Of a stretch of 64,000 nucleotides of DNA, positions 6,060-22,295 are shown piece after piece; position 1 is the first letter of the stretch, and each line of letters begins with the position of its first letter. The position numbers were made by a program, and so were the translations under genes. The notes beneath the pieces are model-generated. The model was not told the origin of the DNA, ran no database searches, and saw nothing but the letters and a program-made list of their open reading frames with translations. Location: positions 18,779 to 82,778 of the forward strand of contig JABDBL010000006.1 in NCBI GenBank assembly GCA_013288645.1. Reading direction: 5' to 3'. Source of the stretch: Candidatus Melainabacteria bacterium. Lineage in GTDB: Bacteria; Cyanobacteriota; Vampirovibrionia; Obscuribacterales; Obscuribacteraceae.

Positions 6060-8414
6060 ATGAATATACTGACATTTTATAAGCGCGATCGATGGCTGGT
6101 CACAGTAACGGCGATTTTTATAATATTGGCTTTGGCTATAGCTTATCAGCCTGTTATGTTCAACTTTTTTTGTTCAGACGATTTTTATATAATTTCTTGG
6201 CTTGATCAATGTAAGCAAAACTTTTCACTTTTATTTCAAACTGTATATGAAGGCACGCCATATTACCGTCCCTTGCTCAATCTTTTGCTATTTATTGAGT
6301 ATTGTTTGTGCGGACCAAACAGTATTTTGTTTAGAGGGTTTAGTCTTCTCTACTTACTAATTACAGCTTACATTCTATGGTTGCTTGTGGGCGAGTTTGC
6401 TAATGAATTGAATGGGACAAATGTTTCTGGCAAATCAGGCGAAAAGAGCACCTGGGCAAAAACTAATTGGTGTTTGTTTTCGGTGGGTTTTTTCCTCCTC
6501 TTTCCTTTGCATACAGAGCCTATCAACTGGTTTGTTAGCACAACTGAATTATTAGTAAATATATTTATACTTGCCAGCTTCTTATTCTTTATATATTGGC
6601 GCAATAGAAATTTATTCGGTTTTCAATTTTTTAGTTATCTACTAGCCGCTTGTGCATTGCTTACTAAAGAAACTGCTGTCATTCTGCCGCCGATTTTGTT
6701 TGTATACGAATTATTAGTCAAAGGCAAAAGGCTGGATAAAATAAATCATGATAGTACCAAGCAATCTTCAAGAATACCGAGTTTGGTTCTACTAAGAAAT
6801 AAGCTGCTTAATGCAATAAGAGTCACTGCTAATTATTGGTTTCTGCTTGTCATTTATTTCTGCCTAAGAAAAATGATGACTGGTGACTTTTTAGGTAATT
6901 GGAGTAATGCTGTATTTCATTTTTCTGATAACCAGGCGATGTTTAAGGCCTGGTTTCAGAGTATCAAAATTATATTAAACCCTATATCTTGGGCAGCATT
7001 TGGAAAAAATTTTCCAGTTCACGTTGCTTGGACATTAATGTTAATCGATTTGACCTTTCTAACTCTGGCTAGCGTGTATAAAAGTTGGAAGAAAATCTCA
7101 CTACTGCTTTTCTTTGTTTGCTGGTTTTTCATAAGTCTTATACCAATGGCTAAATTATTGCTTATCACTTCTGATTTGCTTGATGCTCGATATGGCTATA
7201 TTGCGTCGATACCATTATGTATTTTTTTGATGTTGGGCTTGGCTTTCAGAGAGAGGCCTCTAGGTCTAAATTCTGTACGTTATCTTATTTTTATTGTTGT
7301 TATCTCATTTTGTTGTTTTGTATTGCGCTTAAACAATTCAATTTGGGCCGAAGCGGGTGATCTGACAAATAAAATGCTCAGTGGCTTCCGTCTCATACAC
7401 AAGCAAATACCGAACGCCGCAAAAATTTATTTTATCAACATTCCAGTTAGATATAAGGGCGTAGCTATTGCTGGGATTAAAAGTATGGACTCAATGAATC
7501 ATAAGCCTTTTTCAGCTGATGAATATAATAATTGCGTTTGGCTTCAAGATGAAGATCAGTGTCTTCCAATTGGTTTGATGGCTCACGATTTGGAAGCAGG
7601 TAAAATCGCAGCTTACTTCTACTATCTAAGTAGAGCAGACAAATGTTTTTATCCGGTGCGTTCAATCAAATCTCAACAGGGCAATGGCAAGCAAAACTTA
7701 GGGACATCAAAGCGAATTCGAGGACGCAAACCTACCTTTGTATTTTCTCCAGCAGAATTAAAATGTCAATCTTGCGATGCTTTAGTTTTTAATGTGAATA
7801 TCAAGTATAATGAACCATCTTCTAAGGATCAGTTAGTTCGACTTACTTTTGCCAATGACGCCAATCAAACCAATGATGATGAAGAATGTGTATTAGCTCC
7901 TTTTCTCGCTAAAGAGGGTGATCAGACCGTTATTTTCCCGTTGCGAGGCAAACCAATATGGTCATTTGGCGGCCGTTGCTATTCAATAAAAGTTTCTTTT
8001 CCTAAAGATCTTACTGTTAAGGTTAATGATGCTTTTGCCGTTTCTATAACGGATGATATGCCAAAGTTTGAATTGACCCCCGAAAATTATAGTATCCAAG
8101 GAGGAGTAGTTGATCTTAATTCAACGCATTCTTACTCGAATATCAATTATGATGCATCTTTTATTCGTAATTGTGCCGGAGTGGTTGTTGAGATTATTGA
8201 CTGGTCCGAATATTTTAGAGAACTAAATAGCCCATATTCTGAGGCTCAGTCTTTAATTGATTTGCATTTGATGAAATCCAAAGGACAAATTCAATTAGAT
8301 CGCAATATGTTTAAAGGCTCTCGCTATTATAAAGTGCGCTTACGACCGGTAGATAAGGCTGGTAAGCAATGCGCTTACTGTAGTGACCATTTTATATTGC
8401 ACGTTTCAAATTGA
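6060..8414 (+). CDS. polytopic GT-C-type (PMT/TMTC/ArnT-like) membrane glycosyltransferase with an uncharacterised ~350-aa C-terminal domain
   Basis: Many TM helices. First-loop FCSDDFY (DD motif), YRPL, HTEPINWF and KETAVILPP motifs. Full-length paralog of 16096..18432. Confidence 0.7.
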   Translation: MNILTFYKRDRWLVTVTAIFIILALAIAYQPVMFNFFCSDDFYIISWLDQCKQNFSLLFQTVYEGTPYYRPLLNLLLFIEYCLCGPNSILFRGFSLLYLLITAYILWLLVGEFANELNGTNVSGKSGEKSTWAKTNWCLFSVGFFLLFPLHTEPINWFVSTTELLVNIFILASFLFFIYWRNRNLFGFQFFSYLLAACALLTKETAVILPPILFVYELLVKGKRLDKINHDSTKQSSRIPSLVLLRNKLLNAIRVTANYWFLLVIYFCLRKMMTGDFLGNWSNAVFHFSDNQAMFKAWFQSIKIILNPISWAAFGKNFPVHVAWTLMLIDLTFLTLASVYKSWKKISLLLFFVCWFFISLIPMAKLLLITSDLLDARYGYIASIPLCIFLMLGLAFRERPLGLNSVRYLIFIVVISFCCFVLRLNNSIWAEAGDLTNKMLSGFRLIHKQIPNAAKIYFINIPVRYKGVAIAGIKSMDSMNHKPFSADEYNNCVWLQDEDQCLPIGLMAHDLEAGKIAAYFYYLSRADKCFYPVRSIKSQQGNGKQNLGTSKRIRGRKPTFVFSPAELKCQSCDALVFNVNIKYNEPSSKDQLVRLTFANDANQTNDDEECVLAPFLAKEGDQTVIFPLRGKPIWSFGGRCYSIKVSFPKDLTVKVNDAFAVSITDDMPKFELTPENYSIQGGVVDLNSTHSYSNINYDASFIRNCAGVVVEIIDWSEYFRELNSPYSEAQSLIDLHLMKSKGQIQLDRNMFKGSRYYKVRLRPVDKAGKQCAYCSDHFILHVSN

Positions 8415-8455
8415 GTCTATAGATAAGCGCATTGCATCGGTGCAAATAATATTTC

Positions 8456-9910
8456 ATGATAAAACTCTCTTCAAAAATTAGTATAGCCCTTCCTCTGTTT
8501 GTTGTATGGTTAATTACTATTGCAATACTGACTTATCGCTTAAATACTCTGGGTGCTTTTGCCTCGCTTGGTGTCACCAGATGTCTTGAGTATGTCAAAG
8601 ATGTTGGACAAGCGGATCCCTCCAGTATCAGACTCAATCAATCGTATAGTCAGTGGGCATTGGCGCTCAATATGACTGATCCATCAAACTATATAAAGAC
8701 AGGTCTAGGCTTTGCAGATGGGAAAGGACTTAATCTAAAGAATATTAGTCCTGCTGATCCAAATAATAAAACTTATATGCCTTATTATTTTCAAGGGCCT
8801 GGAACGCCAATTGTAATCGGTGCAATGATTAAGCTTTTCGGTGAGCAGACTGTCTTACCATACTTTATTTTGGTAGTGTGTGTGCATTTGCTAACTGCTT
8901 TTTTAACCTGTATTTTGGCTAGTAAATTTTTTAAAGACAGAATATATATTTTCGGTTCTGGCTTATTGAGTCTTTTATGTCCGGCAGTTTTGGATTATAA
9001 CTTTGGTTGTGGCATATTCGCGTCTGAGCCTTTGACAGCACCATTTATTGTATTGAGTCTAATTGCCATGTCAAATTTTTGGCTTGCTTTAGACGAAAGC
9101 CCTTATTCGTATAAACGTCTTGTTATTAATGCTTTAAGTTTTGGCGGTGCTTTAGGATGTGCCGCATATTTTCGCGATATTTACTCGACTTTTGCCGCTT
9201 TTTCTTTTTTAGTGCTTATTTTGTTTGGGCTTATCAGGCGAACACATTTTAAACAATTGATCTTGTTTGTGCTAATCGGCAGCTTAGTTTTATCTGCTGT
9301 TGAGTATCCTTGGAAAAAGCGTAATGCACGCTACTTTGGCGAATTTACAATGTCTGGCTCAAGTTATTGTAGTTCCAGTTTATGGTATCAAGTGTGGTTT
9401 GACTATAAAGAATCTTCTAAATGGAGCTCGCATGCGGCGATGGGATTAGGTAATTATTTGGCGCCTGAGAAATCAAAAGAAGTATTAGCGGTGCTAGGTA
9501 AAAACAAGCAGGTGGGCAACAGGTTTGCTTGGAAATCTTTTATTGAAGCTATATGGGCAAAACCATGGCAAGCCCTCTGCTATAAATTAGGAGTTTATGA
9601 CACGCTTTGGTGCGGGCAGCGGATTAATGCCTATATTTATTTGTGGTGTTTGCTATCAACTGTAAGTTTTCTGGCGTTTCTGTGGTTAACACGATTTAGG
9701 TTTATACCAGAGCTATGGTTATTCCCGCTTTTTCTTCTATGTATCTCTCCGATTGCTCATTATGAGCACCGCTATTCTCAGCCGTTTTTTCTTTTTATCA
9801 CGCCAATTACAGTTATGTATTTAATTCAATACTATCGAAATTATCGAAGACCGAATTGTCCCAGCATTGGCAGGCAAGAGTTTGAAGAAAATTGTTCAAG
9901 CCGTCTTTAA
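8456..9910 (+). CDS. polytopic membrane protein, probable GT-C/ArnT-like glycosyltransferase
   Basis: About 12 hydrophobic segments over 484 aa. Context next to the GT-C gene. No sharp catalytic motif recognised. Confidence 0.45.
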   Translation: MIKLSSKISIALPLFVVWLITIAILTYRLNTLGAFASLGVTRCLEYVKDVGQADPSSIRLNQSYSQWALALNMTDPSNYIKTGLGFADGKGLNLKNISPADPNNKTYMPYYFQGPGTPIVIGAMIKLFGEQTVLPYFILVVCVHLLTAFLTCILASKFFKDRIYIFGSGLLSLLCPAVLDYNFGCGIFASEPLTAPFIVLSLIAMSNFWLALDESPYSYKRLVINALSFGGALGCAAYFRDIYSTFAAFSFLVLILFGLIRRTHFKQLILFVLIGSLVLSAVEYPWKKRNARYFGEFTMSGSSYCSSSLWYQVWFDYKESSKWSSHAAMGLGNYLAPEKSKEVLAVLGKNKQVGNRFAWKSFIEAIWAKPWQALCYKLGVYDTLWCGQRINAYIYLWCLLSTVSFLAFLWLTRFRFIPELWLFPLFLLCISPIAHYEHRYSQPFFLFITPITVMYLIQYYRNYRRPNCPSIGRQEFEENCSSRL

Positions 9911-9991: not shown

Positions 9992-10306
9992 TTAGAGATA
10001 ATGCTTCACCTCCGATCTGGCAGATTCATTTGATTGTTTTTGTTGAGCGGGCTTGTTATTTATATCGGGCTGTCGTTTAGCCTCTTCCTTGGGCGTCGTA
10101 ATTACTTTAATCTCAAACTTTTTCCCCTTCTCATTCTCGTGTATATATTCACTGTCTGGCGGAGAAAACCCATTTGGTTTTATAGGAGACGAAAGATCTT
10201 TAACAGCTTCTTGGTGCAAGTTTTTTTGAGCCAAATCAGCTGCTGAGGTATCAAGTTTTGCTTTTTCAGGCTTTAATAAGGCTTCTGGCTGTGATTCTCT
10301 AGACAT
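9992..10306 (-). CDS. hypothetical charged/low-complexity protein
   Basis: Overlaps the stop of 10299..10730 by 8 nt (operon-like coupling). No domain recognised. Confidence 0.4.
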   Translation of the reverse strand: MSRESQPEALLKPEKAKLDTSAADLAQKNLHQEAVKDLSSPIKPNGFSPPDSEYIHENEKGKKFEIKVITTPKEEAKRQPDINNKPAQQKQSNESARSEVKHYL

Positions 10307-10730
10307 ATGCTTTCTCCATTTCGGGTAAATTTATTTCGAGAATTTTTCCGCCTTTGCTCAAGACTGTTTTTCCACTTGGATATCGTTCGAATGTATTAGC
10401 TTCTAGTCTTTCGGTGAATTTGTGGCGGGAGATTATTTCACTATATTCAGGCGAATTGGGTAGAGAATAATTGAAACCAAAATATTGGCTACCATCTTGT
10501 CCTATTTTTATATAGCAATATTCTATGGTTTCGTCATCGAGCAATATTGCTGCTTCTGAAAACTCGGGAGTTTCGTCCAAAAGATCAAAATAAGTTAGTG
10601 GCAAGGTAATTAATTGTTCAGCGGAATTATTTTTGCTAGATACCGAATTGTTTGCTAATCCGGTCTTATTCAATCCGTCTATTAGCATGGTTTTACCTCT
10701 CCTGCTTTGTTGGGGGTTAGTAATGACCAT
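10299..10730 (-). CDS. hypothetical protein
   Basis: Clean 143-aa ORF, translationally coupled to 9992..10306. No domain recognised. Confidence 0.5.
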   Translation of the reverse strand: MVITNPQQSRRGKTMLIDGLNKTGLANNSVSSKNNSAEQLITLPLTYFDLLDETPEFSEAAILLDDETIEYCYIKIGQDGSQYFGFNYSLPNSPEYSEIISRHKFTERLEANTFERYPSGKTVLSKGGKILEINLPEMEKAYV

Positions 10731-10816
10731 TTATCTTAAGGGGCAGGTATGTTTTTAAGACAAATGGTCTTTCGAACGTGATTAGTTTAAGGAGGTTGCG
10801 TGACAAAGTTGTGGCA

Positions 10817-11434
10817 GTGCGATATGAGACTGATTAAAATGAATGGAATTAATCCAAGAGCGTCACCACGGTCTTTCTTCGCGTAAAAGAGTCCCAGACT
10901 CCGCCTACACTGGTAGTAAGTAATGAAACTGGTGGATAGCAAGGCACGGAAGCTCCAAATCTTCAAGCCTAAAAGAGGAGGAGGAGCAAGAAGACGACCA
11001 GAAGGGTTAACACAAAGTGAATCACTGTAAGTTCCGTTACTTTTGATTCGGTGAAACAGGCTGATACACCGCGGCCAAAACAAGGCAAATGGGTAGGTTA
11101 TTGCGGTTGTCATAGCAATAACGTGGTGACAAAATCCCCATCGGAATACAGGTGAGACCCGCCCTGGTCAAATGGTCTTTTAATCGGGACATAGTAAACC
11201 CCATAAGTTCTCAAAATGAGTAACCAAACCGCAAGGGACGGCTAATCACTTAGGGGGTAAGGGATTCCAGAGAAAGCGAACGCTGTTCTGTAATGGAATA
11301 GATAAGGCAATACCTAAGTCGAAAGGCTGCTAACTTCTGGAAAGTTCTCAACGGTATATCAAAGTAAAGGAACCAAACTTTTGTGAAAGATAGAACCTTA
11401 ACTGGTATCGGAGCAAACGGACAAATTCTTCAAT
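10817..11434 (+). mobile_element. group II intron, 5' RNA segment (domains I-III and start of IV), truncated by an insertion
   Basis: Starts with the GTGCG 5' consensus at 10817. About 620 nt with no credible ORF (only a spurious antisense one). The matching domain V/VI and maturase remnant lie on the same strand at 15186-15767. Confidence 0.6.
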
Positions 11435-11474
11435 GGGGTAAACGACAACGATTCTGGAAAAAATGACCCATAAG
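11435..11474 (+). repeat. Tn3-family-like terminal inverted-repeat sequence (GGGGTAAACGACAACGATTCTGGAAAAAATGACCCATAAG)
   Basis: The GGGG start and TAAG inner end are hallmarks of Tn3-family 38-bp IRs. A diverged direct copy lies at 14261. Confidence 0.5.
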
Positions 11475-11517
11475 GCGCTTGAAAAGTATTATAAATGCAA
11501 CGTGGCCTGGTTATTAT

Positions 11518-11551
11518 CTTAGCTTGCTCATTCATCGTTAAGCAAGCTAAG
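11518..11551. repeat. perfect 11-bp inverted repeat CTTAGCTTGCT / AGCAAGCTAAG with a 12-nt loop
   Basis: Read directly. Lies just inside the IR-like end. Confidence 0.5.
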
Positions 11552-11728
11552 AAATGGAATTGCTAGCTTTTCCATGCGCTGTTTTAATTCGGACGAATTT
11601 GTCCTGACACAGAGCAAAGCCGCAAGGAAGATGTCATAAGGCATTTGTCGTTTACAAATTTCATTCAAAATGAAAACACTAAGACCTTTATAATAGCTGT
11701 AATCTGAAGCATTCTAATAGGTAAACTA

Positions 11729-12757
11729 ATGCCTCGCTACTTAGCCGTCAATTTATATATCATCATACTAATGCTCACTGTAAAGAGCGCCAATGCCTAT
11801 CAGTCTAACTATACACCCATTACTAAAGAAGATAGGAGAAAACCATTTCCTCTTGAGCACATTGTCTGCGACAAAGACGTAAAGGGCGGACAGCCATTTC
11901 AATGTAGAGGCAGAATCTATTTAAGTAAGGATGATGATTTTCAAATTAGCGGTCGCAATAAAAAAAATGAAGATTGGCAGATAGTTAACCACAATTTTTC
12001 AGAAACTGGACACCTGGCGATTGATGTTTCTGAAGCCGACCTGGATGGCAATGGTGAAAAGGACTTGATTGTGTTTCAGGACACGAGTGGTTGTGGTCTT
12101 TCTCCCACATCAATTTTGGTCACTGTCTTCTTTGACAAACAAAGCAATCCATATGTTGTTAAAACATCTGGTTACTTCGAACAGTGCAACTCGAAACATT
12201 GTATTAAAGACATTTTGCGTTTCAAGCCAAATGGTCATGCCCTATTAGTTACCGAAGATTTTGCGCATACCACAGTAAAAGGTCGAGACAAAAGGTTCTG
12301 GAAAACAGTGTTGTATGAAGCGCAAGATTATAGTTGGACTTTAATACCCAATTATCGAGGCTACAAAATACCTTTACTTGTTCAGTTTACTGAAAGTCCC
12401 AACCATGAGATCATCGCCCATTCTAGTCCAGGCATGCTTAAATTTGACAATATTGAAAATGGACCTGCAGCACAAAAGCGGATAGTAACAGCTACTTTAC
12501 TTGAATTTAATACCAGACACCTTGAGTATGGTGAAGATCCTAATGAAAAAGATCACGTTATTATGCGCACAAGCAAAGATGTATTTGATGTAGGAGACTC
12601 GGGTTATCTGATATCAAGTCACGGCAAGCGAATCGCTAGTTTCGATAATAAAACCTCTGAAGGCTTGCTTGCTGAGGCAGCCAAAAAGAAACAGCAGATA
12701 AAATATATGAAGACTACAAATCTCCACACGATACCGCTATACATCTGGCTTGACTGA
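11729..12757 (+). CDS. secreted hypothetical protein with an FG-GAP/VCBS-like DLDGNGEKDLIVF motif
   Basis: Signal-like N-terminus (NLYIIILMLTVKSANA). One calcium-binding-loop-like motif. Cargo position in the Tn3-like remnant. Confidence 0.55.
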   Translation: MPRYLAVNLYIIILMLTVKSANAYQSNYTPITKEDRRKPFPLEHIVCDKDVKGGQPFQCRGRIYLSKDDDFQISGRNKKNEDWQIVNHNFSETGHLAIDVSEADLDGNGEKDLIVFQDTSGCGLSPTSILVTVFFDKQSNPYVVKTSGYFEQCNSKHCIKDILRFKPNGHALLVTEDFAHTTVKGRDKRFWKTVLYEAQDYSWTLIPNYRGYKIPLLVQFTESPNHEIIAHSSPGMLKFDNIENGPAAQKRIVTATLLEFNTRHLEYGEDPNEKDHVIMRTSKDVFDVGDSGYLISSHGKRIASFDNKTSEGLLAEAAKKKQQIKYMKTTNLHTIPLYIWLD

Positions 12758-12794
12758 GCTACTTGGAGGATGCATGTTCAAAGGAAATTAGGGT

Positions 12795-13559
12795 ATGGCG
12801 GTTAATGTAAATCACGAATCCATTTTTGTAAGAGTCAGGCAGAATAGCCTGATAGCATCAGCTTTGATTGCCATGGCGGTGGTTATGTCAACTAATGTTT
12901 TGGCACGATCCATGCCACCAGTTGATGAAGCAGGAAAAGATCCCTCTCTGCAAAGAGTACGCGCACAGTTATTGACAGTAATTAGACATCACGATAAGAA
13001 GGCTCTTTTGCCGTGGTTAGATCCAGATATTCAGTATGCTCATGGCGGCGGTGCTGGCATACATGATTTTATTGAGAACTGGGGAATAGGTAGCAAAGGC
13101 TCGGATTTTTGGGGAAAGATGGAATTTGCACTCACGCATGGCGGATACCTTGAGAAAGGACGTGATTTTTTTAATCACAAATTAGGTTTGGTTCAGGATA
13201 AACGACCTGAATTCGTAGCACCATATTATCAATTCTACTGTGATGATGAAAAATCATTTGTAAAAACGTTTAGTAGTTTAGAGGATGGATGTCGTGCCAA
13301 TATAATTTCGGGAAGACCGCCCCTGCGTAGCCAGCCAAATTTGAAAGCGCCAATTATTACTAATTTGTCCTATGATTTAGTGACAGTTGATCAAGAAGCA
13401 TATGAGCGTCACCATCCCTGGACAAAAGTAATGACCACCGACGGAAAATCTGGCTTCGTAGAAACAAAAGAACTAACTTTCCAAACTGATCCGATTGCGG
13501 TTTTTAGAAAGATTCATGGCAATTGGCGTCTTATCTGGTTTGGTTATGATGGACCTTAA
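12795..13559 (+). CDS. secreted hypothetical protein, possible C-terminal SH3b-like domain
   Basis: Signal/anchor (LIASALIAMAVVMSTNVLA). The C-terminal region LRSQPNLKAPIITNLSYDLVTV...WTKVMTTDGKSGFVE resembles bacterial SH3 domains. Confidence 0.5.
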   Translation: MAVNVNHESIFVRVRQNSLIASALIAMAVVMSTNVLARSMPPVDEAGKDPSLQRVRAQLLTVIRHHDKKALLPWLDPDIQYAHGGGAGIHDFIENWGIGSKGSDFWGKMEFALTHGGYLEKGRDFFNHKLGLVQDKRPEFVAPYYQFYCDDEKSFVKTFSSLEDGCRANIISGRPPLRSQPNLKAPIITNLSYDLVTVDQEAYERHHPWTKVMTTDGKSGFVETKELTFQTDPIAVFRKIHGNWRLIWFGYDGP

Positions 13560-13619
13560 GAACACCATTTCAAATGATCTGCTGACGAACAGTAATTTAT
13601 GCCATGCCAAAATCACAAT

Positions 13620-14246
13620 TTATCTATTTGATAACTGCCTATATCCAAGTTTTTCTGCTTTCTCTTTGTCCCTTGCCGCCATGTTTTTGTTTCCAAGTTT
13701 TTCATATGCTTCACCACGGTGGTAATAGTAGAGAGCAGCGCCTTTCTTATCAGTTTCTGCCTGATGGGCCGTATCGCTTATAGCCGCTGTAAAGTCCTCA
13801 ATTGCCCTTTGGTATTGAGATAATTGACTATATGCAAAACCGCGAAGATCGAGAACATAATGCTCGATAAAACCCGGATTATTGTGTCCTAAGGCAAGGG
13901 CTTGATTATAGTCATCAATCGCCATTTGATACTTTCCCAGCTTCGCATATAGTTGTCCACGCGTGTTATATAATTCTGTGCTGTAATCTGTATCAACAGA
14001 AGGCCCATAAATCTTTAGCTGCCGGTTGCTTATTTCAATCGCTTTAGTGTAGTCATCAATGGCTTCTTTGCAATGTCCTGAACATTGGTAGTTATAACCA
14101 CGATCAACATAATAGTGCACATACTCCGGACAGACCATTATTGCAATGTCTGGAGAATACAATGGCGAGTGCCTCCAGCTGAATGCAAACAGAATTATCG
14201 GCACCGCGATAATAAGACAGCCAATAACAATCAAAACCTTTATCAT
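13620..14246 (-). CDS. membrane-anchored TPR-repeat protein
   Basis: N-terminal TM (VLIVIGCLIIAVPIILFAF), then about 4 TPR units (e.g. YNTRGQLYAKLGKYQMAIDDYNQALAL). Confidence 0.75.
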   Translation of the reverse strand: MIKVLIVIGCLIIAVPIILFAFSWRHSPLYSPDIAIMVCPEYVHYYVDRGYNYQCSGHCKEAIDDYTKAIEISNRQLKIYGPSVDTDYSTELYNTRGQLYAKLGKYQMAIDDYNQALALGHNNPGFIEHYVLDLRGFAYSQLSQYQRAIEDFTAAISDTAHQAETDKKGAALYYYHRGEAYEKLGNKNMAARDKEKAEKLGYRQLSNR

Positions 14247-14260
14247 AAAATCAAAAATAA

Positions 14261-14336
14261 GTAAGCGGCAATGATCCTGGAAAAAATGGTCTACAAGCTA
14301 CTTGAAAATGGTTATGAGTACACTATGGTTGGGTAG
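14261..14336 (+). repeat. second, degenerate direct copy of the IR-like end and adjacent sequence (lacks the GGGG)
   Basis: GTAAGCGGCAATGATCCTGGAAAAAATGGTCTACAAGCTACTTGAAAATGG aligns by eye at roughly 70% identity with 11437-11510. Confidence 0.5.
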
Positions 14337-14379
14337 CACTTATTAACCTGTTACGAAGTTCTTTTGAAGGAGTATCAAA

Positions 14380-14500
14380 AACGGCCGTTTCTGACATAAA
14401 CCCCGATCGACTTATGCTGTATCCACCTATGCGGCTGGGCGCCTCTCAGAAACCGTCTCGTAATCATAATGTCAAAATAAACCATATTAATGACTTTTGA
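14380..14500 (+). promoter_or_regulatory. candidate res (resolvase-binding) region upstream of tnpR
   Basis: TGTCAAAATAA at 14470 and an inverted TGTCAG half-site near 14385-14395 resemble TGTCYNNTAA resolvase half-sites. Position is as expected. Weak evidence. Confidence 0.3.
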
Positions 14501-14537
14501 GATATTATAGCAACCTTATCAATTGACCGGAATACCT

Positions 14538-15095
14538 ATGCACGTTGGATATGCGCGAGTTTCCACTTTAGATCAAAAATTGGCATTGCAGAAAGATGCT
14601 TTGGCTAAAGCAGGCTGCAAGAAGCTTTTCACCGACATTGCAAGTGGTGCAACTGATGCACGAAAAGGACTCATCGAAGCGATCAGTTACGTCCGGGAGG
14701 GAGATGTTCTTGTCGTTTGGAGATTGGATCGCCTTGGGCGTTCTTTGCGACATCTGATCGACACAGTAAATGATTTAAGCAAGAGGGGAGTCGCTTTCAA
14801 AAGCCTGCAAGAACAAATTGACACAACCACAAGTGGTGGCAAATTGATTTTCCATGTCTTTGATGCTCTTGCTGAATTTGAGCGAGACCTTATCAGCGAA
14901 CGAACCCAAGCCGGACTGCATGCGGCCCGAGCGCGAGGACGCAAAGGCGGACGACCAAGTAAAGTGACCACGAAGAAATTATCAATGGCACAAAAGCTAT
15001 TAAGCGACGAAAAAAACAGCATTGATGACGTTTGCCACACGCTACGGATCTCGCGGGCTACTTTATATCGGCACCTGCGAAAGGCAAGTGACTGA
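14538..15095 (+). CDS. tnpR: serine recombinase, Tn3-family resolvase
   Basis: MHVGYARVSTLDQ catalytic-serine motif, VWRLDRLGRS, and C-terminal HTH (ISRATLYRHL). About 185 aa. Confidence 0.9.
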   Translation: MHVGYARVSTLDQKLALQKDALAKAGCKKLFTDIASGATDARKGLIEAISYVREGDVLVVWRLDRLGRSLRHLIDTVNDLSKRGVAFKSLQEQIDTTTSGGKLIFHVFDALAEFERDLISERTQAGLHAARARGRKGGRPSKVTTKKLSMAQKLLSDEKNSIDDVCHTLRISRATLYRHLRKASD

Positions 15096-15185
15096 TGCCC
15101 AGTATTCACGAAACGGCTTATCCAAGGCTAAAAGCAGCGATCTCGAATAACGATCTTGAAGATCTGTTTACTCCGATTCCAACCA
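15095..15185 (+). pseudogene. tnpA: 5' stub of a Tn3-family transposase gene (about 27-30 codons)
   Basis: The ATG overlaps the tnpR stop (TGATG). MPSIHETAYPRLKAAISNNDLEDLFTPIPTT resembles DUF4158-type TnpA N-termini. The frame is then lost. Confidence 0.5.
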
Positions 15186-15683
15186 CAAAAAGAAAAGGTC
15201 TTCGCGTTGCTAAAAGAGGTGCGCAGATGGCTTAAAAGCAATTGCTCAGCAAAAGCCGAAAATGTCATTCGTCATCTCAATCCTATTTTAATTGGTTGGT
15301 CGAACTACTATAAGCATGCATCAAGCAAACAGACCTTTTCCTACGTACAACAACAAATCTGGAGAGCGCTCTGGAAATGGTGTTTGCGACGCCATCCGAA
15401 TAAGGGGAAATACTGGGTACGTAAGAAATACTTCCAACAAACCCAAAGGGAAAGCTGGAAATTCTTTAGCAAAATCACAAACAAATATGGACAATCAGAA
15501 ATACTGACTCTTTTTAATGTGAGTCAAGTATTAATAGAAAGACATATAAAGGTCTGTGGAAATGCTAGCCCGGATGACTCAACTCTACAAGAGTATTGGC
15601 AAAAGCGTCAGCAACGTAGTAAAGGTCTAATGCGCATGACTGCATATTGGGATAACAGCGATGTTCGTAAACGAACAGTTTAA
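15186..15683 (+). pseudogene. group II intron-encoded protein remnant: maturase (X/thumb) and C-terminal region only, RT domain missing
   Basis: KEKVFALLKEVRRWLK...VIRHLNPILIGWSNYYKHA is the classic intron-maturase motif. The ORF ends 10 nt before intron domain V. Confidence 0.8.
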
Positions 15684-15692
15684 TGAGGGCTT

Positions 15693-15767
15693 GAGCCGGA
15701 TGAAGCGAAAGCTTCATGTCCGGTTCTTAGAGGAGGTAGACGCGGCGACGCGTCTACTTTACTCAAC
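15693..15767 (+). ncRNA. group II intron domain V (15693-15726) and domain VI with a bulged-A candidate; 3' splice site at about 15767
   Basis: GAGCCGGATGAAGCGAAAGCTTCATGTCCGGTTC is a 34-nt DV hairpin with the AGC triad and a GAAA loop. It is followed by stem GTAGACGCG-GCGA-CGCGTCTAC and an unpaired A 7 nt from ...CTCAAC. Confidence 0.8.
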
Positions 15768-15796
15768 GAAAGTTATTTCTAAAGTTTAGAATTCAA

Positions 15797-16099
15797 TTGC
15801 TGTGTAAAATAGTTACAGCTACTTTCCAGGGGAACGCTATTTTGAATATTAATTGTTCTAGTTCTCATGATGTGGAACAAAAACAGAGAAGACTGCTTAA
15901 AGCCAATCGTTGTATCAATGGCAAAATGATTTCAGCGCTGGAGACACTTTCTATTAAAAGAGGTAGAGTACCCGCTTCTACTTTTGATCCTTTTACTGAT
16001 TATAAAAAGGTAAATGATGAATTTGAATTGGTTATGGGTGAGTCAAGTAGTCATGCAATGGAAGATTTACTTGATGTACCATCGGATAAAAAGCGATGA
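15797..16099 (+). CDS. hypothetical small protein (doubtful)
   Basis: ORF overlapping the next gene by ATGA. No domain recognised. Start uncertain. Confidence 0.3.
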   Translation: MLCKIVTATFQGNAILNINCSSSHDVEQKQRRLLKANRCINGKMISALETLSIKRGRVPASTFDPFTDYKKVNDEFELVMGESSSHAMEDLLDVPSDKKR

Positions 16100-18432
16100 T
16101 AGATACGACGGATCCAGCCGGACATCAAACCGCTGATCAAAGTGCAAATTTAAATTCACTCGAATTACTGCCCCTTCTTGGTGTGCTCATATTTGTAATA
16201 CTCATTTATTCACCTATTATGATGAATGCATTTAATGGTGATGATTTTGTTCATCTGAAGTGGCTTTCCGAAGCAGTTAAACAGCCGGAACTTATTTGGC
16301 GTAACTTTCACAGTGCATGGCTAGATATAAGTACAGCAAAGTTTTATAGACCGCTTATTTCCTTATTTATGCTTGGGGATTATATCATTTGGCACGGTAA
16401 CGGTACGGGCTTTCATTTGACAAATGTTTTATGCCACATAGCAAATACTTATTTTTTATGGCTTATATTGCGGCAATTGCCTTTAAACAACGATAGTTCT
16501 AAATGGAATTATATGTGGTGCTTAAGTGCAGCTACGCTATTTGGACTCCACCCACTACATCCTGAGGCGGTCTCTTGGATTACTGGAAGAGTTGATACCT
16601 TCGTCACTTTATTTTCGCTTGCAAGTCTTTACAGCTACATAGAATGGCGTCGATCAAAGAGTGGCATGGCCCAGAGTTCTAATCAGTGGTTTTTCCTAAG
16701 CTTGATTTCTATGGCTTTGGCTCTTATGTGCAAAGAGATGGCTATTGTTTTACCGGCAATATTTTCTGCCTATGAATTTACTATAGGATCAAAGGAATTA
16801 AAAATTAGAAAAAGACTTTTGTCTGTTTTCGAAAGAACATTTCTATTCTGGTCACTTTTAGGACTCTATTTTATCTTGCGTTATTTTGCTTTAGGTACAC
16901 TAATTGGTGGTTACGACAATGCACTCTTGAGTCTTGATAATTTGCCAGAATTAATTTCAATTTGGCGTAAGTCTCTATATCTTCTTTTCTTTCCTTTTGA
17001 TGGTGCCCTCCTAAGCAGATCTGGACTTATCACATTTATTTGGGGTGGGCTTTTAACTGCTAATTTTATATTGATCGCTAAGCACGTTTTTATTGAAAAC
17101 AAAAATATGTCCACTTTCGTTTTTCTGTTAAGCTGGTTGGTACTGAGCTTAGTACCAGTATATAAACTCTTTAATATTGCCACTGATTTGCAGGGTAGTC
17201 GTTTAGCATATTTGTCCACAGTTCCTTTATCTGCCTTGCTCTGTTTCGGTTATGCTACTTGTTTAGAAATCAACGGTAAGATACGGTACTGGAAGCTTTT
17301 GGCTCTCGCTCTTTTATTATCGTCAGCGGGAGCACTCTTATTGGTAAATAATTCGGCTTGGATTGAAGCAGAGCTTACTTCCCAAGCTATTGTGAATCAA
17401 TTGAATGATTTATCTAAAACAATCAATAAAAAAAATACGATATATATTGTTGGACTACCCGATCAAATAAACGGGGCCTATGTCTGTCGCAATGCTCTGG
17501 ATGGAATGAGCAAATATCCGCAAATCAGTAAAAGTATTGATTATTGTTTTAATCTTGACGAAATAAATCATGTTTTTCCATTCGGATATGCTCGGCATTC
17601 TATGACACATATTGATAAGGATAGAGTAACTTCCAAATTTTACATTTGGGATGCAATAGAAAAGAAATTGAAAAGCTTTTCTTTACCGGATAAAGCAAGC
17701 GATGGGTCACTCACTATAGACACAAACAAGGATATTTCACAGCAAGAAGGAGAAATAATAATTGATCTAAGAAATAAACCTTGTTTTTACCTAGATTGTT
17801 TAGTTGTAAGTGTTAATTTTGGGCAGGCTGGTGACAAAAAAAAGGGTGCTAATGTTTGCAGGCTCTTTTATACGAACGAAATTGTTTCACAATTCGATAA
17901 TGCGCATAGACTTGATGTACATTTGGAGCCCGGTTCTGGTAATCAGAAGCTTCTGTTTCCTTTGCATGGACAAGCAGATTGGGCTATGGGAAATAGAGCA
18001 CACCTTTTGAAATTGGTTTTGCCAAAGTCAAGAGCATTTTACATCCAAGATATTAGCTTTGAGCCAATAGAAAAAATTATGCCGAATCTCTACTTTAGAG
18101 CAAACGCTAATCAAAACAACCTGGGTTTCATAGAGTTGAACGACCTTTATCCGTCCTGCCAGCTGGGCTTTGATGGTGGTAAAGTTGTTGGCGCAGATAA
18201 AGTTATGTTCGAACTTACAGCGCCTGACCAGACTTTTACTGTTGTCAATGATACTAAAGAACCGAATTCAATTTTTTCTAGTAAAAAATTGAAAGGTCAG
18301 ACTGGTTTGATATCATTAAATAAGAAAGACTTCGCTTTACCCGGTATATATGAACTACGTTTGAGAGCATTGGACAGCAGTGATAAACAAATAGGCGTAG
18401 CCGGAGATCACATTGTAATAACGGTAAAATAA
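16096..18432 (+). CDS. polytopic GT-C-type (PMT/TMTC/ArnT-like) membrane glycosyltransferase, paralog of 6060..8414
   Basis: FNGDDFVHLKWL (DD motif), YRPL, HPLHPEAVSWITGRVD and KEMAIVLPA. Same ~350-aa C-terminal domain, ending ...GDHIVITVK versus ...SDHFILHVSN. Confidence 0.7.
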   Translation: MIDTTDPAGHQTADQSANLNSLELLPLLGVLIFVILIYSPIMMNAFNGDDFVHLKWLSEAVKQPELIWRNFHSAWLDISTAKFYRPLISLFMLGDYIIWHGNGTGFHLTNVLCHIANTYFLWLILRQLPLNNDSSKWNYMWCLSAATLFGLHPLHPEAVSWITGRVDTFVTLFSLASLYSYIEWRRSKSGMAQSSNQWFFLSLISMALALMCKEMAIVLPAIFSAYEFTIGSKELKIRKRLLSVFERTFLFWSLLGLYFILRYFALGTLIGGYDNALLSLDNLPELISIWRKSLYLLFFPFDGALLSRSGLITFIWGGLLTANFILIAKHVFIENKNMSTFVFLLSWLVLSLVPVYKLFNIATDLQGSRLAYLSTVPLSALLCFGYATCLEINGKIRYWKLLALALLLSSAGALLLVNNSAWIEAELTSQAIVNQLNDLSKTINKKNTIYIVGLPDQINGAYVCRNALDGMSKYPQISKSIDYCFNLDEINHVFPFGYARHSMTHIDKDRVTSKFYIWDAIEKKLKSFSLPDKASDGSLTIDTNKDISQQEGEIIIDLRNKPCFYLDCLVVSVNFGQAGDKKKGANVCRLFYTNEIVSQFDNAHRLDVHLEPGSGNQKLLFPLHGQADWAMGNRAHLLKLVLPKSRAFYIQDISFEPIEKIMPNLYFRANANQNNLGFIELNDLYPSCQLGFDGGKVVGADKVMFELTAPDQTFTVVNDTKEPNSIFSSKKLKGQTGLISLNKKDFALPGIYELRLRALDSSDKQIGVAGDHIVITVK

Positions 18433-18603: not shown

Positions 18604-21600
18604 TTATTTACCCCAAGATTTGGGTACTGGTCTGTTTAGTTCAGGATTCATTGATGTGATTGGTTTTCTTGGCGTTTGATTAGGGTCTAACCCAGGTATT
18701 TGATTGTAGTTGTTGGCACTTAGGTTGGAATTAGCGCTATCTGAAGTACTTGGCTGTTTATTTGATGACATGTTCTGCACAATGTTTTGAATGTTTGATG
18801 TGCCTGGAGCAAAAGGAAATGGAGGCGGTGCAGCTTCTGCTTGTTGTTTTACTGGAACGCGTTCTTTATTGGCCAAAACAGCAGATGTTTCCAGTTCTAT
18901 TTTTTGATTTTGGTCTAAGACAATTCGGTTGCCGGCTGTTTCAATGGTTGGTGCTGGTTGTCCTAAGAAAGTCCCGCAATTAGTGCAGAATTTTTTGGTT
19001 GTGGCGGGTTGTTTACAAGCGGGGCAAATACGATGGCCTAAATTGTCTTCAATCTTTTTGGGCACAACGACTGAGGCAGTAGTTGATCCATCTGGAATCA
19101 CGCCAGCAATAGGCTCAATTGCGCTAATGGTTGGATTACCAATTGTATTAACAGCCGCATCTGGTATGGCACTAGCTAACGTGTCAGCAAGTTTGCCAAC
19201 TGCAGTTGTGGATGGACTAGAAGCGCCTGTAGCCAAAGTTTCTGGCGCATTTTGCTCAGGTACTTGGCGCCAACCACCTTGTTGACCTAAGTGTGATTGC
19301 CATGGAACATGAGTGGGTAGAGGTGACGCCATCCCGTCTCCGTCAGCGGAAGGTGGCCCTGAGCGACTGGAAACGTTGTGCAATAAGTGCAAGCGAGCAA
19401 TCTCTTCAATACCCCTCAAGTCAACCATAAGTGGTTTAACTTCGCCAAATTCTGGATCTCCGGCTGGTGAGAGATAAACAAGAGCGTGTTGTTTTTCCAT
19501 ACGCTTAATAGCATCAGAATCAACTCGAGCTACAACTTGTTGCGAGTGAATGCGGTTCCAACTGGTTGGAAATACACCGCCACCTCCGGCTTGGAAGTGG
19601 TCAGATAAGCCTGGAACAATTACTGCTTGTTTACCAATTTCATCGGAGAAGAAGCGAGCTGTGGTTTCATCAGCGTTGTGTAAGCAAACCCGGACAGCAG
19701 AGTTAGAGAATATTGTACGTAATTCAGAAGAGCCGGAGCTGGCGGGGTTGGTAGATGTAGTGTTCGTAGCTATCTGACTGATGTTTTGTAAAATAACAGT
19801 CAAACCACCATTAGCACCACGAACAATTGCTGATAATCTGCCTGCTGTGTCTAAGTTCAATGTTTGATATTCATCAAAGAAAGCAAATAAAGGCAAGACT
19901 GATACAGTACCATATCTGGTATGTAAGGCTTGTTGTAATTGATATACGAAGCAAGAAGCTAATGACTCAGCATCTGGTCCTAATGCTGCCGGAGCACCAA
20001 ATATTAGAACGGTAGGTTTGTGCATTGCAGCATTTAGGTCAACATTTGATTGTTCGGTAACACGTAATACACCTGGATTCTTGAACATGCGCAGGCGACC
20101 ACGCACACCTTGTATATTTTTGTCCCAATCGGTATCTGTACGAATAATAGAAGATAATGTTTGAGTTAATTCACTCAGTTCTGCTGGATCAACTTCTGGA
20201 TTGTTTTTAAGCCGACGCAGTGACTCAACAATATTACGACGGTTATTAACCAGCTTCATTAATCCGCGTGGATTACAAGGCAGAGCTGAAATTTCAGAAA
20301 CATAACCATCTGTATCTTCACCCATTACTTGCACAGCGCCCCATTTAAGCAATTGAGTTAAGCCAGCAATATAGCCATGGTCACGTTCTGCCCAGTGTTG
20401 TTCTTCAGGAGCTAGCATATTTATATCTTGCACGATGGAAGAAGCAAATATTGTAGGAGATAGATCCATTGGATTCCAGTTGACTGATTCTTCCATATCT
20501 AGAGGGTTAAAATAGAGTGTATCAAATCCAGCTGACTTAGCCTCAGGCAACACAGTATATTTAAAACCTTCTCGCTTTTCATCTAAGGCTGGATCGTTGG
20601 CTTTGGCTTCTAAAGCGATGATTACGCAAGGCTTAGCTAGCAATGCTTTTATAATAGCGCGCATCAAAGTGGTTTTACCTGAACCTGATGGAGCTACGAT
20701 GAACATGTTTTTATTGGGTAATCGTCCTAATGGAATCGTTACTGGCAAATGAGTACGGGCAAGAAACCCGAAAGGAAGTACAACACCATCAGCCTCAGTC
20801 CAGCTAGCATTCGGATTGCGCTTACCTAAGCGTCCATGACGTCTTAAGTTAGGAGGACAAAGATATGATTTTTCATAATCTCTAGGCGTCATAAGCCCAG
20901 AAGGAGGATTAAAGGTACGAATAGTCTGCCATGGGAATAGACGCTTCTTGTGAGCCGCAGCAACACTGAGCGCAATTAATATGAGCGTTGGCAATAAGAT
21001 GGCGATGGATGTTGTATCCAAGAAGCCGTGCGGTTTGTATTGAGAAAGAGGTGCTTTGTCTGGGTGACCGGACACGCCTTCAAGTCTTAAGTTTTTGCTT
21101 TGTATAGCTTGACTGGCTGTTGGTGTTAAGCTAGATTCTGCACGTGATACTGGCTGTGGTGAATCGCTGACCGGTGGGGCAGCGTTTGTCGCTAAAGGTG
21201 TTTCAGCAAGTGGCAACTGCTCATTAGGCGAAAGAATATGGGCTCCTGGTTGGATAAGAGGATTGTCATTTGTAGGCGGTAAAGCAGTAGTTATGCCTGC
21301 CGGTAATCGAGTATGAACCCCATCATCTGGTGCAACATTATACTGTTGTGGAGAAGCATTGCGGTAATTATCTGGTGGCACTAAAACAGTATGTCCGCCT
21401 CTTGTTTGATAAGCATACATTCCACTGGGTTGGCCACTTGCTTGCGGTTGTGAAATAGAAGGTAAGCCAGTATATCCACCAGAAGAAATGGCAGGTTGAT
21501 TGGAATAGTTTGGCGTATAGCCACCTTGAAGAGTTTGCATACGGCGCTCATATTCTTGGGCGCTAATTACTTCCCCGGTATCCGAGTTGCTAAAGCGGGC

Positions 21601-21639
21601 GATTACACCCTTTTCGTTCAGTTGTGGTCTCCAGCCCAT
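18604..21639 (-). CDS. type IV coupling protein (VirD4/TraG/TraD-like ATPase) with long disordered extensions and a C-terminal zinc ribbon
   Basis: TM segment (SIAILLPTLILIALSVAAA). Walker A FIVAPSGSGKTT, Walker B LFAFFDEYQ, TVILQNISQ. CPACKQPATTKKFCTNCG near 18965-19035. AAGGAG SD before the start. Confidence 0.85.
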   Translation of the reverse strand: MGWRPQLNEKGVIARFSNSDTGEVISAQEYERRMQTLQGGYTPNYSNQPAISSGGYTGLPSISQPQASGQPSGMYAYQTRGGHTVLVPPDNYRNASPQQYNVAPDDGVHTRLPAGITTALPPTNDNPLIQPGAHILSPNEQLPLAETPLATNAAPPVSDSPQPVSRAESSLTPTASQAIQSKNLRLEGVSGHPDKAPLSQYKPHGFLDTTSIAILLPTLILIALSVAAAHKKRLFPWQTIRTFNPPSGLMTPRDYEKSYLCPPNLRRHGRLGKRNPNASWTEADGVVLPFGFLARTHLPVTIPLGRLPNKNMFIVAPSGSGKTTLMRAIIKALLAKPCVIIALEAKANDPALDEKREGFKYTVLPEAKSAGFDTLYFNPLDMEESVNWNPMDLSPTIFASSIVQDINMLAPEEQHWAERDHGYIAGLTQLLKWGAVQVMGEDTDGYVSEISALPCNPRGLMKLVNNRRNIVESLRRLKNNPEVDPAELSELTQTLSSIIRTDTDWDKNIQGVRGRLRMFKNPGVLRVTEQSNVDLNAAMHKPTVLIFGAPAALGPDAESLASCFVYQLQQALHTRYGTVSVLPLFAFFDEYQTLNLDTAGRLSAIVRGANGGLTVILQNISQIATNTTSTNPASSGSSELRTIFSNSAVRVCLHNADETTARFFSDEIGKQAVIVPGLSDHFQAGGGGVFPTSWNRIHSQQVVARVDSDAIKRMEKQHALVYLSPAGDPEFGEVKPLMVDLRGIEEIARLHLLHNVSSRSGPPSADGDGMASPLPTHVPWQSHLGQQGGWRQVPEQNAPETLATGASSPSTTAVGKLADTLASAIPDAAVNTIGNPTISAIEPIAGVIPDGSTTASVVVPKKIEDNLGHRICPACKQPATTKKFCTNCGTFLGQPAPTIETAGNRIVLDQNQKIELETSAVLANKERVPVKQQAEAAPPPFPFAPGTSNIQNIVQNMSSNKQPSTSDSANSNLSANNYNQIPGLDPNQTPRKPITSMNPELNRPVPKSWGK

Positions 21640-21650
21640 ATCCTATCTCC

Positions 21651-22286
21651 TTAGCTTTTGCCACCTTCGCTAATGCCGGCAATGCGCAACCCATCGGTTG
21701 TGTTCTTAACTAAATATTCTAATTTGACTGAGCGGGTTTTAGGTCCTTTGTTAGGTATATTTAGTACTTGCTTGCCTTCTACTGTAATAATTACTGAACC
21801 GTCTGATTGATTATTGCCAGCTGCTACACGATTGGCACTAAATGAGCTTTTAATACCGGAGGCATTTATTTGTTGAGCTATTTCTGGTGTCCAAACATTT
21901 TGTCTGTAAGCTTTTGCACATTCAGGGGTCATGTATTCTATAGCCTTTTCTTGGCTTTCGCTGGCTGTGTCTGCACTTAAATCCCAAGCTAGCGGCAACC
22001 AATCTTGGACCAGATTTAAAGAATTTAGAGGATCAGCAAACGATGCCTGGTTAGCTTGAGCCTGACCATTTGCTGTAGCATAGGTAGATGTTCGAGCAGA
22101 TGAAATTGGTCTGCCTCCACTTATATCCGGATCGTCCATATAAGCAGCTCTTGGTCGAGTTTTAGCAGCGGGCTCCGACCCACCACTAGACAATAGAATA
22201 GTGAAAAATGCTCCAGCCATCAGGCCGGCTAATGCCACCATAATTAAGGTTATTTTGTATTTTTCACCTGCTTGATAATCGAACAT
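21651..22286 (-). CDS. bitopic membrane protein in the VirB8/PrgL/TcpC position (function inferred from context only)
   Basis: One N-terminal TM (ITLIMVALAGLMAGAFFTILL) plus a ~150-aa extracytoplasmic domain. Lies between the VirB4 and VirD4 genes. Confidence 0.4.
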   Translation of the reverse strand: MFDYQAGEKYKITLIMVALAGLMAGAFFTILLSSGGSEPAAKTRPRAAYMDDPDISGGRPISSARTSTYATANGQAQANQASFADPLNSLNLVQDWLPLAWDLSADTASESQEKAIEYMTPECAKAYRQNVWTPEIAQQINASGIKSSFSANRVAAGNNQSDGSVIITVEGKQVLNIPNKGPKTRSVKLEYLVKNTTDGLRIAGISEGGKS

Positions 22287-22295
22287 ATACCTATC

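Follow-up and report, generated by a model that had tools for sequence, protein, structure and literature searches.

Between positions 10817 and 15767 of a 64,000-nt stretch of DNA from a metagenome assembly of Candidatus Melainabacteria bacterium (GCA_013288645.1, contig JABDBL010000006.1; the whole stretch is called the window here, and positions are window positions on the + strand unless otherwise stated) lies one group II intron, interrupted by a 3,742-bp remnant of a Tn3-family transposon (11435-15176). Read from its 5' end, the locus consists of the 5' part of an intron ribozyme, the first codons of an intron-encoded protein (IEP), a transposon end followed by three passenger open reading frames (ORFs), a recombinase gene and the start of a transposase gene, and then the remaining part of the IEP ORF and the 3' end of the intron. 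Three other sequences serve as references throughout: L001, a related Candidatus Melainabacteria metagenome-assembled genome (MAG) that carries an intact intron and was found by scanning species-representative genomes with the maturase remnant of the window; L196, from CAVYFJ010000006.1 of a third related Melainabacteria MAG, whose site is without intron; and L119, the metagenome contig Ga0182030_10050417, which came from a metagenome scan and contains a decayed transposon at 437-2834.

The intron starts with GTGCG at 10817 and ends with ...AAC at 15767, thus having both the 5' GUGYG and the 3' AY boundary. The 5' exon, or homing site (GTGACAAAGTTGTGGCA, 10796-10816), is identical in L001 and includes the candidate intron-binding sites IBS2 (CAAAG, 10804-10808) and IBS1 (UGUGGCA, 10810-10816). 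At the syntenic site of L196 the intron is absent and GTGACAAAGTTGTGGCA|GAAA is contiguous, so that the 3' exon starts with GAAA; a query with these ligated exons (GTGACAAAGTTGTGGCA plus GAAA) matches once only in 596 Gb of genomes, in L196, against ~0.1 matches expected by chance, and the upstream genes of L196 match those of the window in synteny. The boundary is ambiguous by 1 nt (G), which is settled by the canonical GUGCG. A 5' boundary ~20 nt upstream of 10817, suggested by a first MAFFT alignment, was rejected, as further members of the intron family all start with GTGCGA, their only difference being a variable hairpin at the 5' end, and the empty site agrees. The genes that flank the intron in the window and in L001 are syntenic, at only ~60-76% amino acid identity, and the L001 locus is therefore orthologous. 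Three orthologous syntenic loci thus represent three states, empty (L196), intact (L001) and broken (window), which fix the intron boundaries at 10817 and 15767 and place the arrival of the intron first.

Comparison with the intact intron of L001 (3428-5561, 2,134 nt) accounts for both halves. Upstream of the insert, window 10718-11437 aligns with L001 3324-4041 at 87.6% nucleotide identity; the intron portion of this alignment, 10817-11437, is collinear with L001 3428-4041, the 5' 614 nt of the intact intron (~88%), and the ribozyme part alone, which extends from GUGCG through domains I-III into domain IV (10817-11382), is 88% identical to L001 3428-3986. Downstream of the insert, window 15177-15811 aligns with L001 4971-5607 at 85.6%, and the intron portion, 15177-15767, with L001 4971-5561 at ~86%. 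Judged by this collinearity with one intact intron, and not with two different ones, the two halves are parts of a single intron, as a first-pass annotation of the window had supposed. What the window lacks is L001 4042-4970 (~930 nt, with a 3-nt ambiguity), which encodes IEP codons 19-328, the RT_0-7 region of the reverse transcriptase (RT).

The IEP ORF has accordingly been left in two pieces. Its first 18 codons (VKDRTLTGIGANGQILQW, with a GTG start) occupy 11383-11434; in a tblastn search with the L001 IEP, residues 1-18 match 11383-11436 with 89% identity, the end point being ambiguous by 3 nt (11435-11437, GGG) that are common to the intron and the transposon tip. The 3' part, codons 329-496 and the stop (15177-15683), comprises the thumb/X maturase domain and the C-terminal region, and its coding portion (15177-15680) is 82-83% identical in amino acid sequence to the L001 IEP. 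The ORF in which it lies, 15156-15683, matches Pfam GIIM (E 2.3e-23), has no RT domain, and covers just positions 282-353 of TIGR04416, the NCBIfam model of group II RT/maturases. The L001 IEP, in contrast, is a complete 496-aa ORF with RVT_N, RVT_1 and GIIM that scores 355 bits against TIGR04416 (cut-off 300) and has domain V/VI downstream. RT and maturase are thus found together in L001, whereas the window copy retains codons 1-18 and 329-496 only and is a defective member of the group II introns.

The 3' end of the intron is well preserved. Rfam Intron_gpII (RF00029) matches 15691-15767 with 57.1 bits (gathering threshold 40, E 1.4e-8), the sole match above gathering in the whole window. 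Domain V (15693-15726) has 34 nt with an AGC triad and a GAAA loop, and resembles the plastid D5 models, which give 41-44 bits; domain VI (15730-15767) contains, by the Rfam alignment and the sequence, a branch-point A that bulges out at 15761, at a distance of seven nt from the 3' end. The block of both domains (15684-15767) is 96% identical to L001. The maturase remnant, 34-nt domain V and domain VI with bulged A that the first-pass annotation recognized are thus borne out, as is its statement that the RT domain and nearly all of the transposase gene are missing; its ~620-nt structured, non-coding segment starting with GTGCG stands as to the start and the structure, but the last ~52-55 nt of it (from 11383) are coding, for IEP residues 1-18.

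The evidence for structure in the 5' segment is comparative. Along its length the segment is homologous to cyanobacterial introns, all beginning with GTGCGA; members of this family were recovered by a 25-nt degenerate pattern from Scytonema (L003), Hassallia (L005), Tolypothrix (L100) and Leptolyngbya (L105, L111, L112), many of them at different genomic sites. In an alignment of the first ~600 nt of seven sequences (the window and six cyanobacterial relatives aligned to it), a consensus structure of 146 pairs has compensatory changes at 64, and 94.6% of cells are paired as compared with 36-44% when the partners are slid; none of 500 shuffles reaches the observed values. Because the structure was derived from the same alignment these numbers are biased, although the margin is large, and domains I-III are judged as a whole rather than assigned individually. 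The window copy keeps 129 of the 146 consensus pairs, the intact L001 copy 131. A single-sequence fold of 10817-11382 is not significant (z = -1.2), and the case for structure is therefore one of covariation. The loop of a hairpin at 11108-11114 (UGUCAUA) can pair with the last seven exon nucleotides (UGUGGCA), which would make an EBS1/IBS1 interaction (EBS, exon-binding site) of 7 bp at -7 to -1, and a loop at ~11041-11045 can pair with exon positions ~-13 to -9 as a putative 5-bp EBS2/IBS2 interaction; covariation of the EBS2 column with the exon is seen across four contexts.

The insert begins with a 40-bp Tn3-family terminal inverted repeat (IR), IR-a (11435-11474; GGGGTAAACGACAACGATTCTGGAAAAAATGACCCATAAG), which has a GGGG tip and an inner TAAG, reads GGGGTAAACG...CCCATAAG, and forms the outer left end of the transposon. 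Intron homology ends at ...CAATGGG, exactly where IR-a starts, with GGG common to both; taking the tip as canonical puts the insertion after 11434, within domain IV and between codons 18 and 19 of the IEP. The core of IR-a matches both the IRL-like and the IRR-like end of L119. A left junction at the exact outer tip of a terminal repeat is a signature of transposition, and by the Tn3-family rule of 5-bp target duplication (PMC4337579) TCAAT at 11430-11434 is the probable left copy.

At the other end, the insert stops within a transposase gene. A stub of 27 codons plus 1 nt (MPSIHETAYPRLKAAISNNDLEDLFTP; 15095-15176), whose ATG overlaps the stop of the preceding gene, is too short for Pfam, but 20 of its 27 residues (74%) are identical to the start of the L119 transposase, and it is 44% identical to the N-termini of DUF4158 ORFs in two further loci (L030 and L043). 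The L119 ORF, which starts MPSIRETAYPRLKASIPKKDLKDLYTP, contains DUF4158 (E 5e-16), and its end corresponds to the last positions of DDE_Tnp_Tn3. Homology to L119 extends from 14373 to 15174 (L119 1568-2374, 80% nucleotide identity) over the candidate res region, tnpR and the start of tnpA. At the right junction, 15176|15177, L119 homology ends at the exact base where intron homology (L001 4971, IEP codon 329) resumes; here tnpA codon 27/28 is fused to IEP codon 329. A breakpoint inside both tnpA and the IEP ORF points to a single illegitimate deletion after the insertion.

Immediately upstream of the stub is tnpR (14541-15095), an intact gene for a small serine recombinase of 184 aa (Pfam Resolvase 4.8e-46 and HTH_7), which is 86% identical in amino acid sequence to that of L119 and 61% identical to a recombinase of the plasmid pBY3, where the gene is directly followed by an annotated 'Tn3 family transposase' in a unit bounded by inverted repeats and a 5-bp duplication. 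Its relatives in genome representatives and plasmids are at most 68% identical, the close relative in L119 having come from the metagenome scan only, and an exact-protein look-up with two start choices returned no record. The region before tnpR (14373-14540) is ~80% identical to L119 1568-1736 and contains three TCARAAACSG half-sites (14375 on the + strand, 14394 on the - strand and 14446 on the + strand), conserved in position in L119 and ~20-fold enriched over the window background; they are taken as a candidate res site for recombinase binding. In the window, therefore, tnpR stands beside tnpA with a candidate res, while a full TnpA with DUF4158 and DDE_Tnp_Tn3 is lacking, and the element is a Tn3-family remnant, an incomplete member of that family. 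This agrees with the first-pass description of intervening DNA running from a GGGG...TAAG repeat to tnpR and ~27 tnpA codons.

Insertion of the intron, then of a Tn3-like transposon, then a deletion is the most economical reading of these data; it is supported by the locus states of L001 and L196, by a left junction at the repeat tip and by a right junction between tnpA and the IEP ORF, and is also the order that the first-pass annotation had reconstructed. We consider it the best explanation and hold it with high confidence. A mobile IIB/chloroplast-like group II intron would have resided in GTGACAAAGTTGTGGCA|GAAA upstream of a + strand gene cluster, the setting being a conserved leader or intergenic sequence in a Melainabacteria-like genome or conjugative element, and its intact ancestor, like the L001 intron, would have encoded an RT/maturase of ~496 aa without endonuclease domain. 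A replicative Tn3-family transposon would then have entered the domain IV ORF between the codons given above, with the layout IR-a, three passenger ORFs, a relic repeat (IR-b), res, tnpR, tnpA and right IR. Subsequently, a deletion with no evident microhomology would have removed the transposon from tnpA codon 28 onward, including the right IR, and the intron as far as IEP codon 328, a loss of ~930 nt of intron and an estimated ~2.9 kb of transposon. The outcome is an intron with a maturase fragment but without reverse transcriptase, and a transposon with one functional end but without transposase, neither able to move autonomously. The claim of the first-pass annotation that both elements are dead thus holds for autonomous mobility and not for every gene, as tnpR and the passenger ORFs survive intact.

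The deletion step is further constrained by the rest of the window. The 64 kb contain no further piece of a Tn3 transposase or of the intron RT and no copy of the repeat in inverted orientation, and the missing parts were therefore deleted; a local inversion was rejected for the same reason. In the Tn3 family, a resolvase-mediated deletion ends in res and a transposase-mediated one at an IR tip, so neither mechanism gives the end points observed. No microhomology is evident at the junction in comparison with L119 and L001, a weak result in that both references have diverged. As judged from one pairwise comparison, the break seems young relative to the divergence between window and L001 (dS 0.64): the maturase remnant has neither stop nor indel, with a ratio of nonsynonymous to synonymous substitution (dN/dS) of 0.15, and the ribozyme part is hardly more damaged than that of the intact copy (129 and 131 pairs kept), so that most of the divergence probably accrued while the protein was under selection.

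Several observations weigh against this history or against parts of it. The Rfam group-II-D1D4 models give no match on the 5' segment even at E<=10 (10000-16500 scanned), so that the Rfam scan suggested for both ends succeeds at 15691-15767 only; the same models are likewise silent on the intact relatives L001-L004, which give the domain V/VI match alone, and the negative is thus uninformative, this class being one that the models do not cover. The cross-control of the EBS/IBS pairings has low power, a copy's own pairings averaging 4.7-4.9 bp and mismatched ones 3.6-3.7 bp. An inverted partner of IR-a is found nowhere in the window. TnpR, whose closest solved structures are Gin invertase and then the gamma-delta and Tn3 resolvases, is nearer in sequence to Gin-type invertases than to those resolvases, so that a resolvase role is putative. 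No intact copy of the transposon was found, the best relative (L119, at 80% nucleotide identity) being itself internally deleted; for this reason we infer, rather than read from a reference, the length lost, the right IR and the target duplication. Finally, in a metagenome assembly a chimeric join is possible in principle.

The preservation of the ribozyme raises the question of whether splicing might still remove the interrupted intron from the downstream operon's leader, with a maturase provided in trans or by the retained X-domain ORF. Domain IV tolerates large inserts, and either a continuous RNA or two separately transcribed halves could in this case splice; domains I-III, V and VI are essentially undamaged (by the pair counts and the identity to L001 given above), and the foreign DNA is confined to the ORF loop of domain IV. 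In addition, the maturase remnant is open for 168 codons without stop or indel, and 47 of its 78 differences from L001 fall at third codon positions, with the dN/dS of 0.15. A pairwise dN/dS, however, mainly reflects the history before the break. Moreover, there is no second copy of the intron in the 64 kb, the L001 genome has one copy only by the 25-nt pattern, any transcript would need to run through 3.7 kb of foreign sequence with a gene on the opposite strand in it, and the adjoining downstream gene is shortened and frameshifted compared with L001, which is what a loss of expression through the intron would lead one to expect. We therefore regard continued splicing as very unlikely, and splicing would have been lost with the break; if it did persist, this would be a natural intron whose domain IV has as its passengers a transposon remnant together with a recombinase and three cargo genes.

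It is similarly improbable, in our estimation, that the insert came by illegitimate or homologous recombination or was already truncated on arrival, with the repeat at 11435 a coincidence or a relic end. Such an origin would be compatible with there being one end only, the right IR not found in the window and the target duplication not open to a check, and the internal IR-b shows an earlier rearrangement of the element. Yet the sole repeat copy with a canonical tip has its GGGG exactly at the junction, an arrangement that transposase-mediated insertion produces and that is unlikely by chance, and the right junction is a simple internal breakpoint that fits one later deletion. Least probable of all is an assembly chimera of intron and transposon copies from different places or strains of the metagenome, for although the source is a metagenome assembly and mobile elements are often misassembled, two wrong joins would have had to restore collinear intron halves in the right order and orientation at a syntenic locus, there is no shared repeat at the junctions, and a Logan contig (run SRR8432565) is 100% identical to the window across both of them, though possibly built from the same reads and so not independent.

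Within the preferred history of intron, transposon and deletion, the intron is assigned to the chloroplast-like (CL)/IIB class by its IEP match and RNA features rather than by IEP phylogeny. The L001 IEP is closest to the maturase/RT of T.el4h, a CL (IIB) cyanobacterial intron (ribonucleoprotein PDB 6ME0), with E 2.7e-115 over residues 10-475, and the family shares with cyanobacterial introns the 5' GUGCGA, the covarying domain I-III architecture, domain V/VI and putative IIB-style EBS1/EBS2. It differs from T.el4h in that the L001 IEP, at 496 aa, is without the C-terminal ~80 residues of the 562-aa T.el4h protein, and therefore presumably without the endonuclease (En) domain, and from the cyanobacterial introns in that the host is Melainabacteria-like and not an oxygenic cyanobacterium, and in the loss of IEP codons 19-328 from the window copy. 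The majority of bacterial group II intron copies have been truncated or rendered inactive, with many lying among other mobile DNAs (Zimmerly and Semper 2015, PMC4424553); the window copy resembles these in having been inactivated by another mobile element and in having type IV secretion genes nearby, but here the history can be read from empty, intact and broken orthologous states with breakpoints at the level of the base.

Two Leptolyngbya-type genomes, the Leptolyngbyaceae MAG bins.302 (L101, L103, L104, L107-L110) and Leptolyngbya sp. SIOISBB (L105, L111, L112), contain multiple copies of the intron family. These always follow ...GA(A/G)TA(C/T)TGG(A/G)T(N)(N)T(G/T)G, apparently in paralogous genes that encode an ...EYWI/V... 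motif, and many are at contig ends.

The layout of the transposon remnant is familiar from the Tn3 family, in which the left end serves as a platform for passenger genes and extra IR copies, 5-bp duplications and many disabled derivatives are known (Ferreira et al., PMC4337579). Passenger ORF 1 (11729-12757, 342 aa) has no Pfam or NCBIfam match, and its one homologue among 5.8 billion proteins (54% identity) lies in an unrelated, non-transposon context; passenger ORF 2 (12795-13559, 254 aa) has a weak match to Pfam SH3_3 (E 0.003, below the cut-off); and passenger ORF 3 (13620-14246, - strand, 208 aa) is a TPR-repeat protein (Pfam TPR_1 3.4e-19, TPR_2 6.4e-19). They are followed by IR-b (14258-14297), a degenerate second terminal repeat in direct orientation that has the tip TAAG instead of GGGG, also matches the IRR core of L119, and is contained in the second copy of direct repeat D1 (11438-11499 and 14261-14322, 62 nt, 73% identity). 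A spacer of 240 bp separates IR-b from tnpR. The flanks have a GC fraction of 0.38-0.40, the cargo one of 0.40 and tnpR one of 0.48.

Compared with the TnXax1 derivatives described in PMC4337579, the remnant shares the G-rich IR tip, passengers between the left IR and the recombination module, tnpR with tnpA, an extra internal IR and a disabled state; unlike TnXax1, however, it uses a small serine recombinase of the tnpR type and not TnpS/TnpT, its IR has 40 bp and not 92 bp, its cargo is without informative annotation, its tnpA is reduced to 27 codons, and its right IR is gone. L119 likewise has the repeat core at its left end (437-480) and inverted at its right end (2786-2834), with cargo between left IR and res, but it differs in that the cargo encodes a PALP enzyme, tnpA is internally deleted and not 3'-truncated, both IR tips are degenerate, there is no internal IR-b, and the element is not in an intron. 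L119 shows decay of its own, in that the element at 437-2834 combines degenerate IRs, a PALP-enzyme gene on the - strand, res, an apparently frameshifted tnpR, and a tnpA that is interrupted by an in-frame stop and has lost a large internal part.

Both elements are thus of known kinds, and so is the relationship between them, of which this is a new case, tidy and unsurprising, that leaves current understanding unchanged. Its value is mainly for annotation, since the resolvase, a 46-codon ORF and the 'GIIM' ORF are pieces of two wrecked mobile elements and not independent genes. It also provides a case, resolved to the base, in which nested mobile elements have decayed and the empty, the occupied and the broken state are each represented at orthologous loci of three Melainabacteria-like genomes, and documents both a chloroplast-like/IIB-type intron family common to Melainabacteria and cyanobacteria and a little-sampled Tn3-family lineage with cargo between left end and res.

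The surroundings of the intron target are themselves conserved. The same GTGACAAAGTTGTGGCA|GAAA is present in three genomes, between which the neighbouring proteins share only 55-76% identity, and in the window it is preceded by AAGGAGG-N4-GTG, which in the spliced window and in L196 would encode a peptide of 11-12 codons (MTKLWQK...); the target may accordingly belong to a conserved regulatory element or a leader peptide. The exon frames of L001 combine into one long ORF, and the signal-peptide-like start of the downstream protein lies further downstream. Location of the intron inside a protein-coding gene was set aside, given that the GTG-initiated frame stops after 11-12 codons in the window and L196, and the site is treated here as leader or intergenic. 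Close by, in the divergent intergenic region, is an inverted repeat, GACCATTT... / ...AAATGGTC (window 10722-10772; L001 ~3328-3385; L196 ~75-135, - strand), that overlaps the ATG of the - strand gene 10299-10730 and is kept in the three genomes, where the extensions of its arms differ but are mutually complementary; its role could be that of an operator or of a hairpin in a leader.

In the window, the gene that comes first after the intron is an ORF of 100 codons (15797-16099), as compared with ~265-300 codons in L001, where it has a signal-peptide-like KKRKK...VYA segment. Alignment of window 15768-16099 with L001 5562-6459 shows that the window has a gap of 2 nt directly behind the 3' splice site and lacks ~190 codons in frame; this shortening may be secondary decay after the intron was broken. 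A type IV secretion/conjugation module (18604-25148, - strand), 3-9 kb downstream of the intron and syntenic in L001, includes a VirD4/TraG-like coupling protein (T4SS-DNA_transf, TraG-D_C) and a VirB4/TraG-like ATPase (P-loop_TraG, AAA_10), and one tblastx segment of it is up to ~95% identical to L001; the region around the intron may thus be part of a conjugative element. Large multi-pass membrane proteins (784, 484 and 778 aa) with no Pfam match flank the intron locus at 6060-9910 and 16096-18432, and are conserved in L001, the upstream ones in L196 as well.

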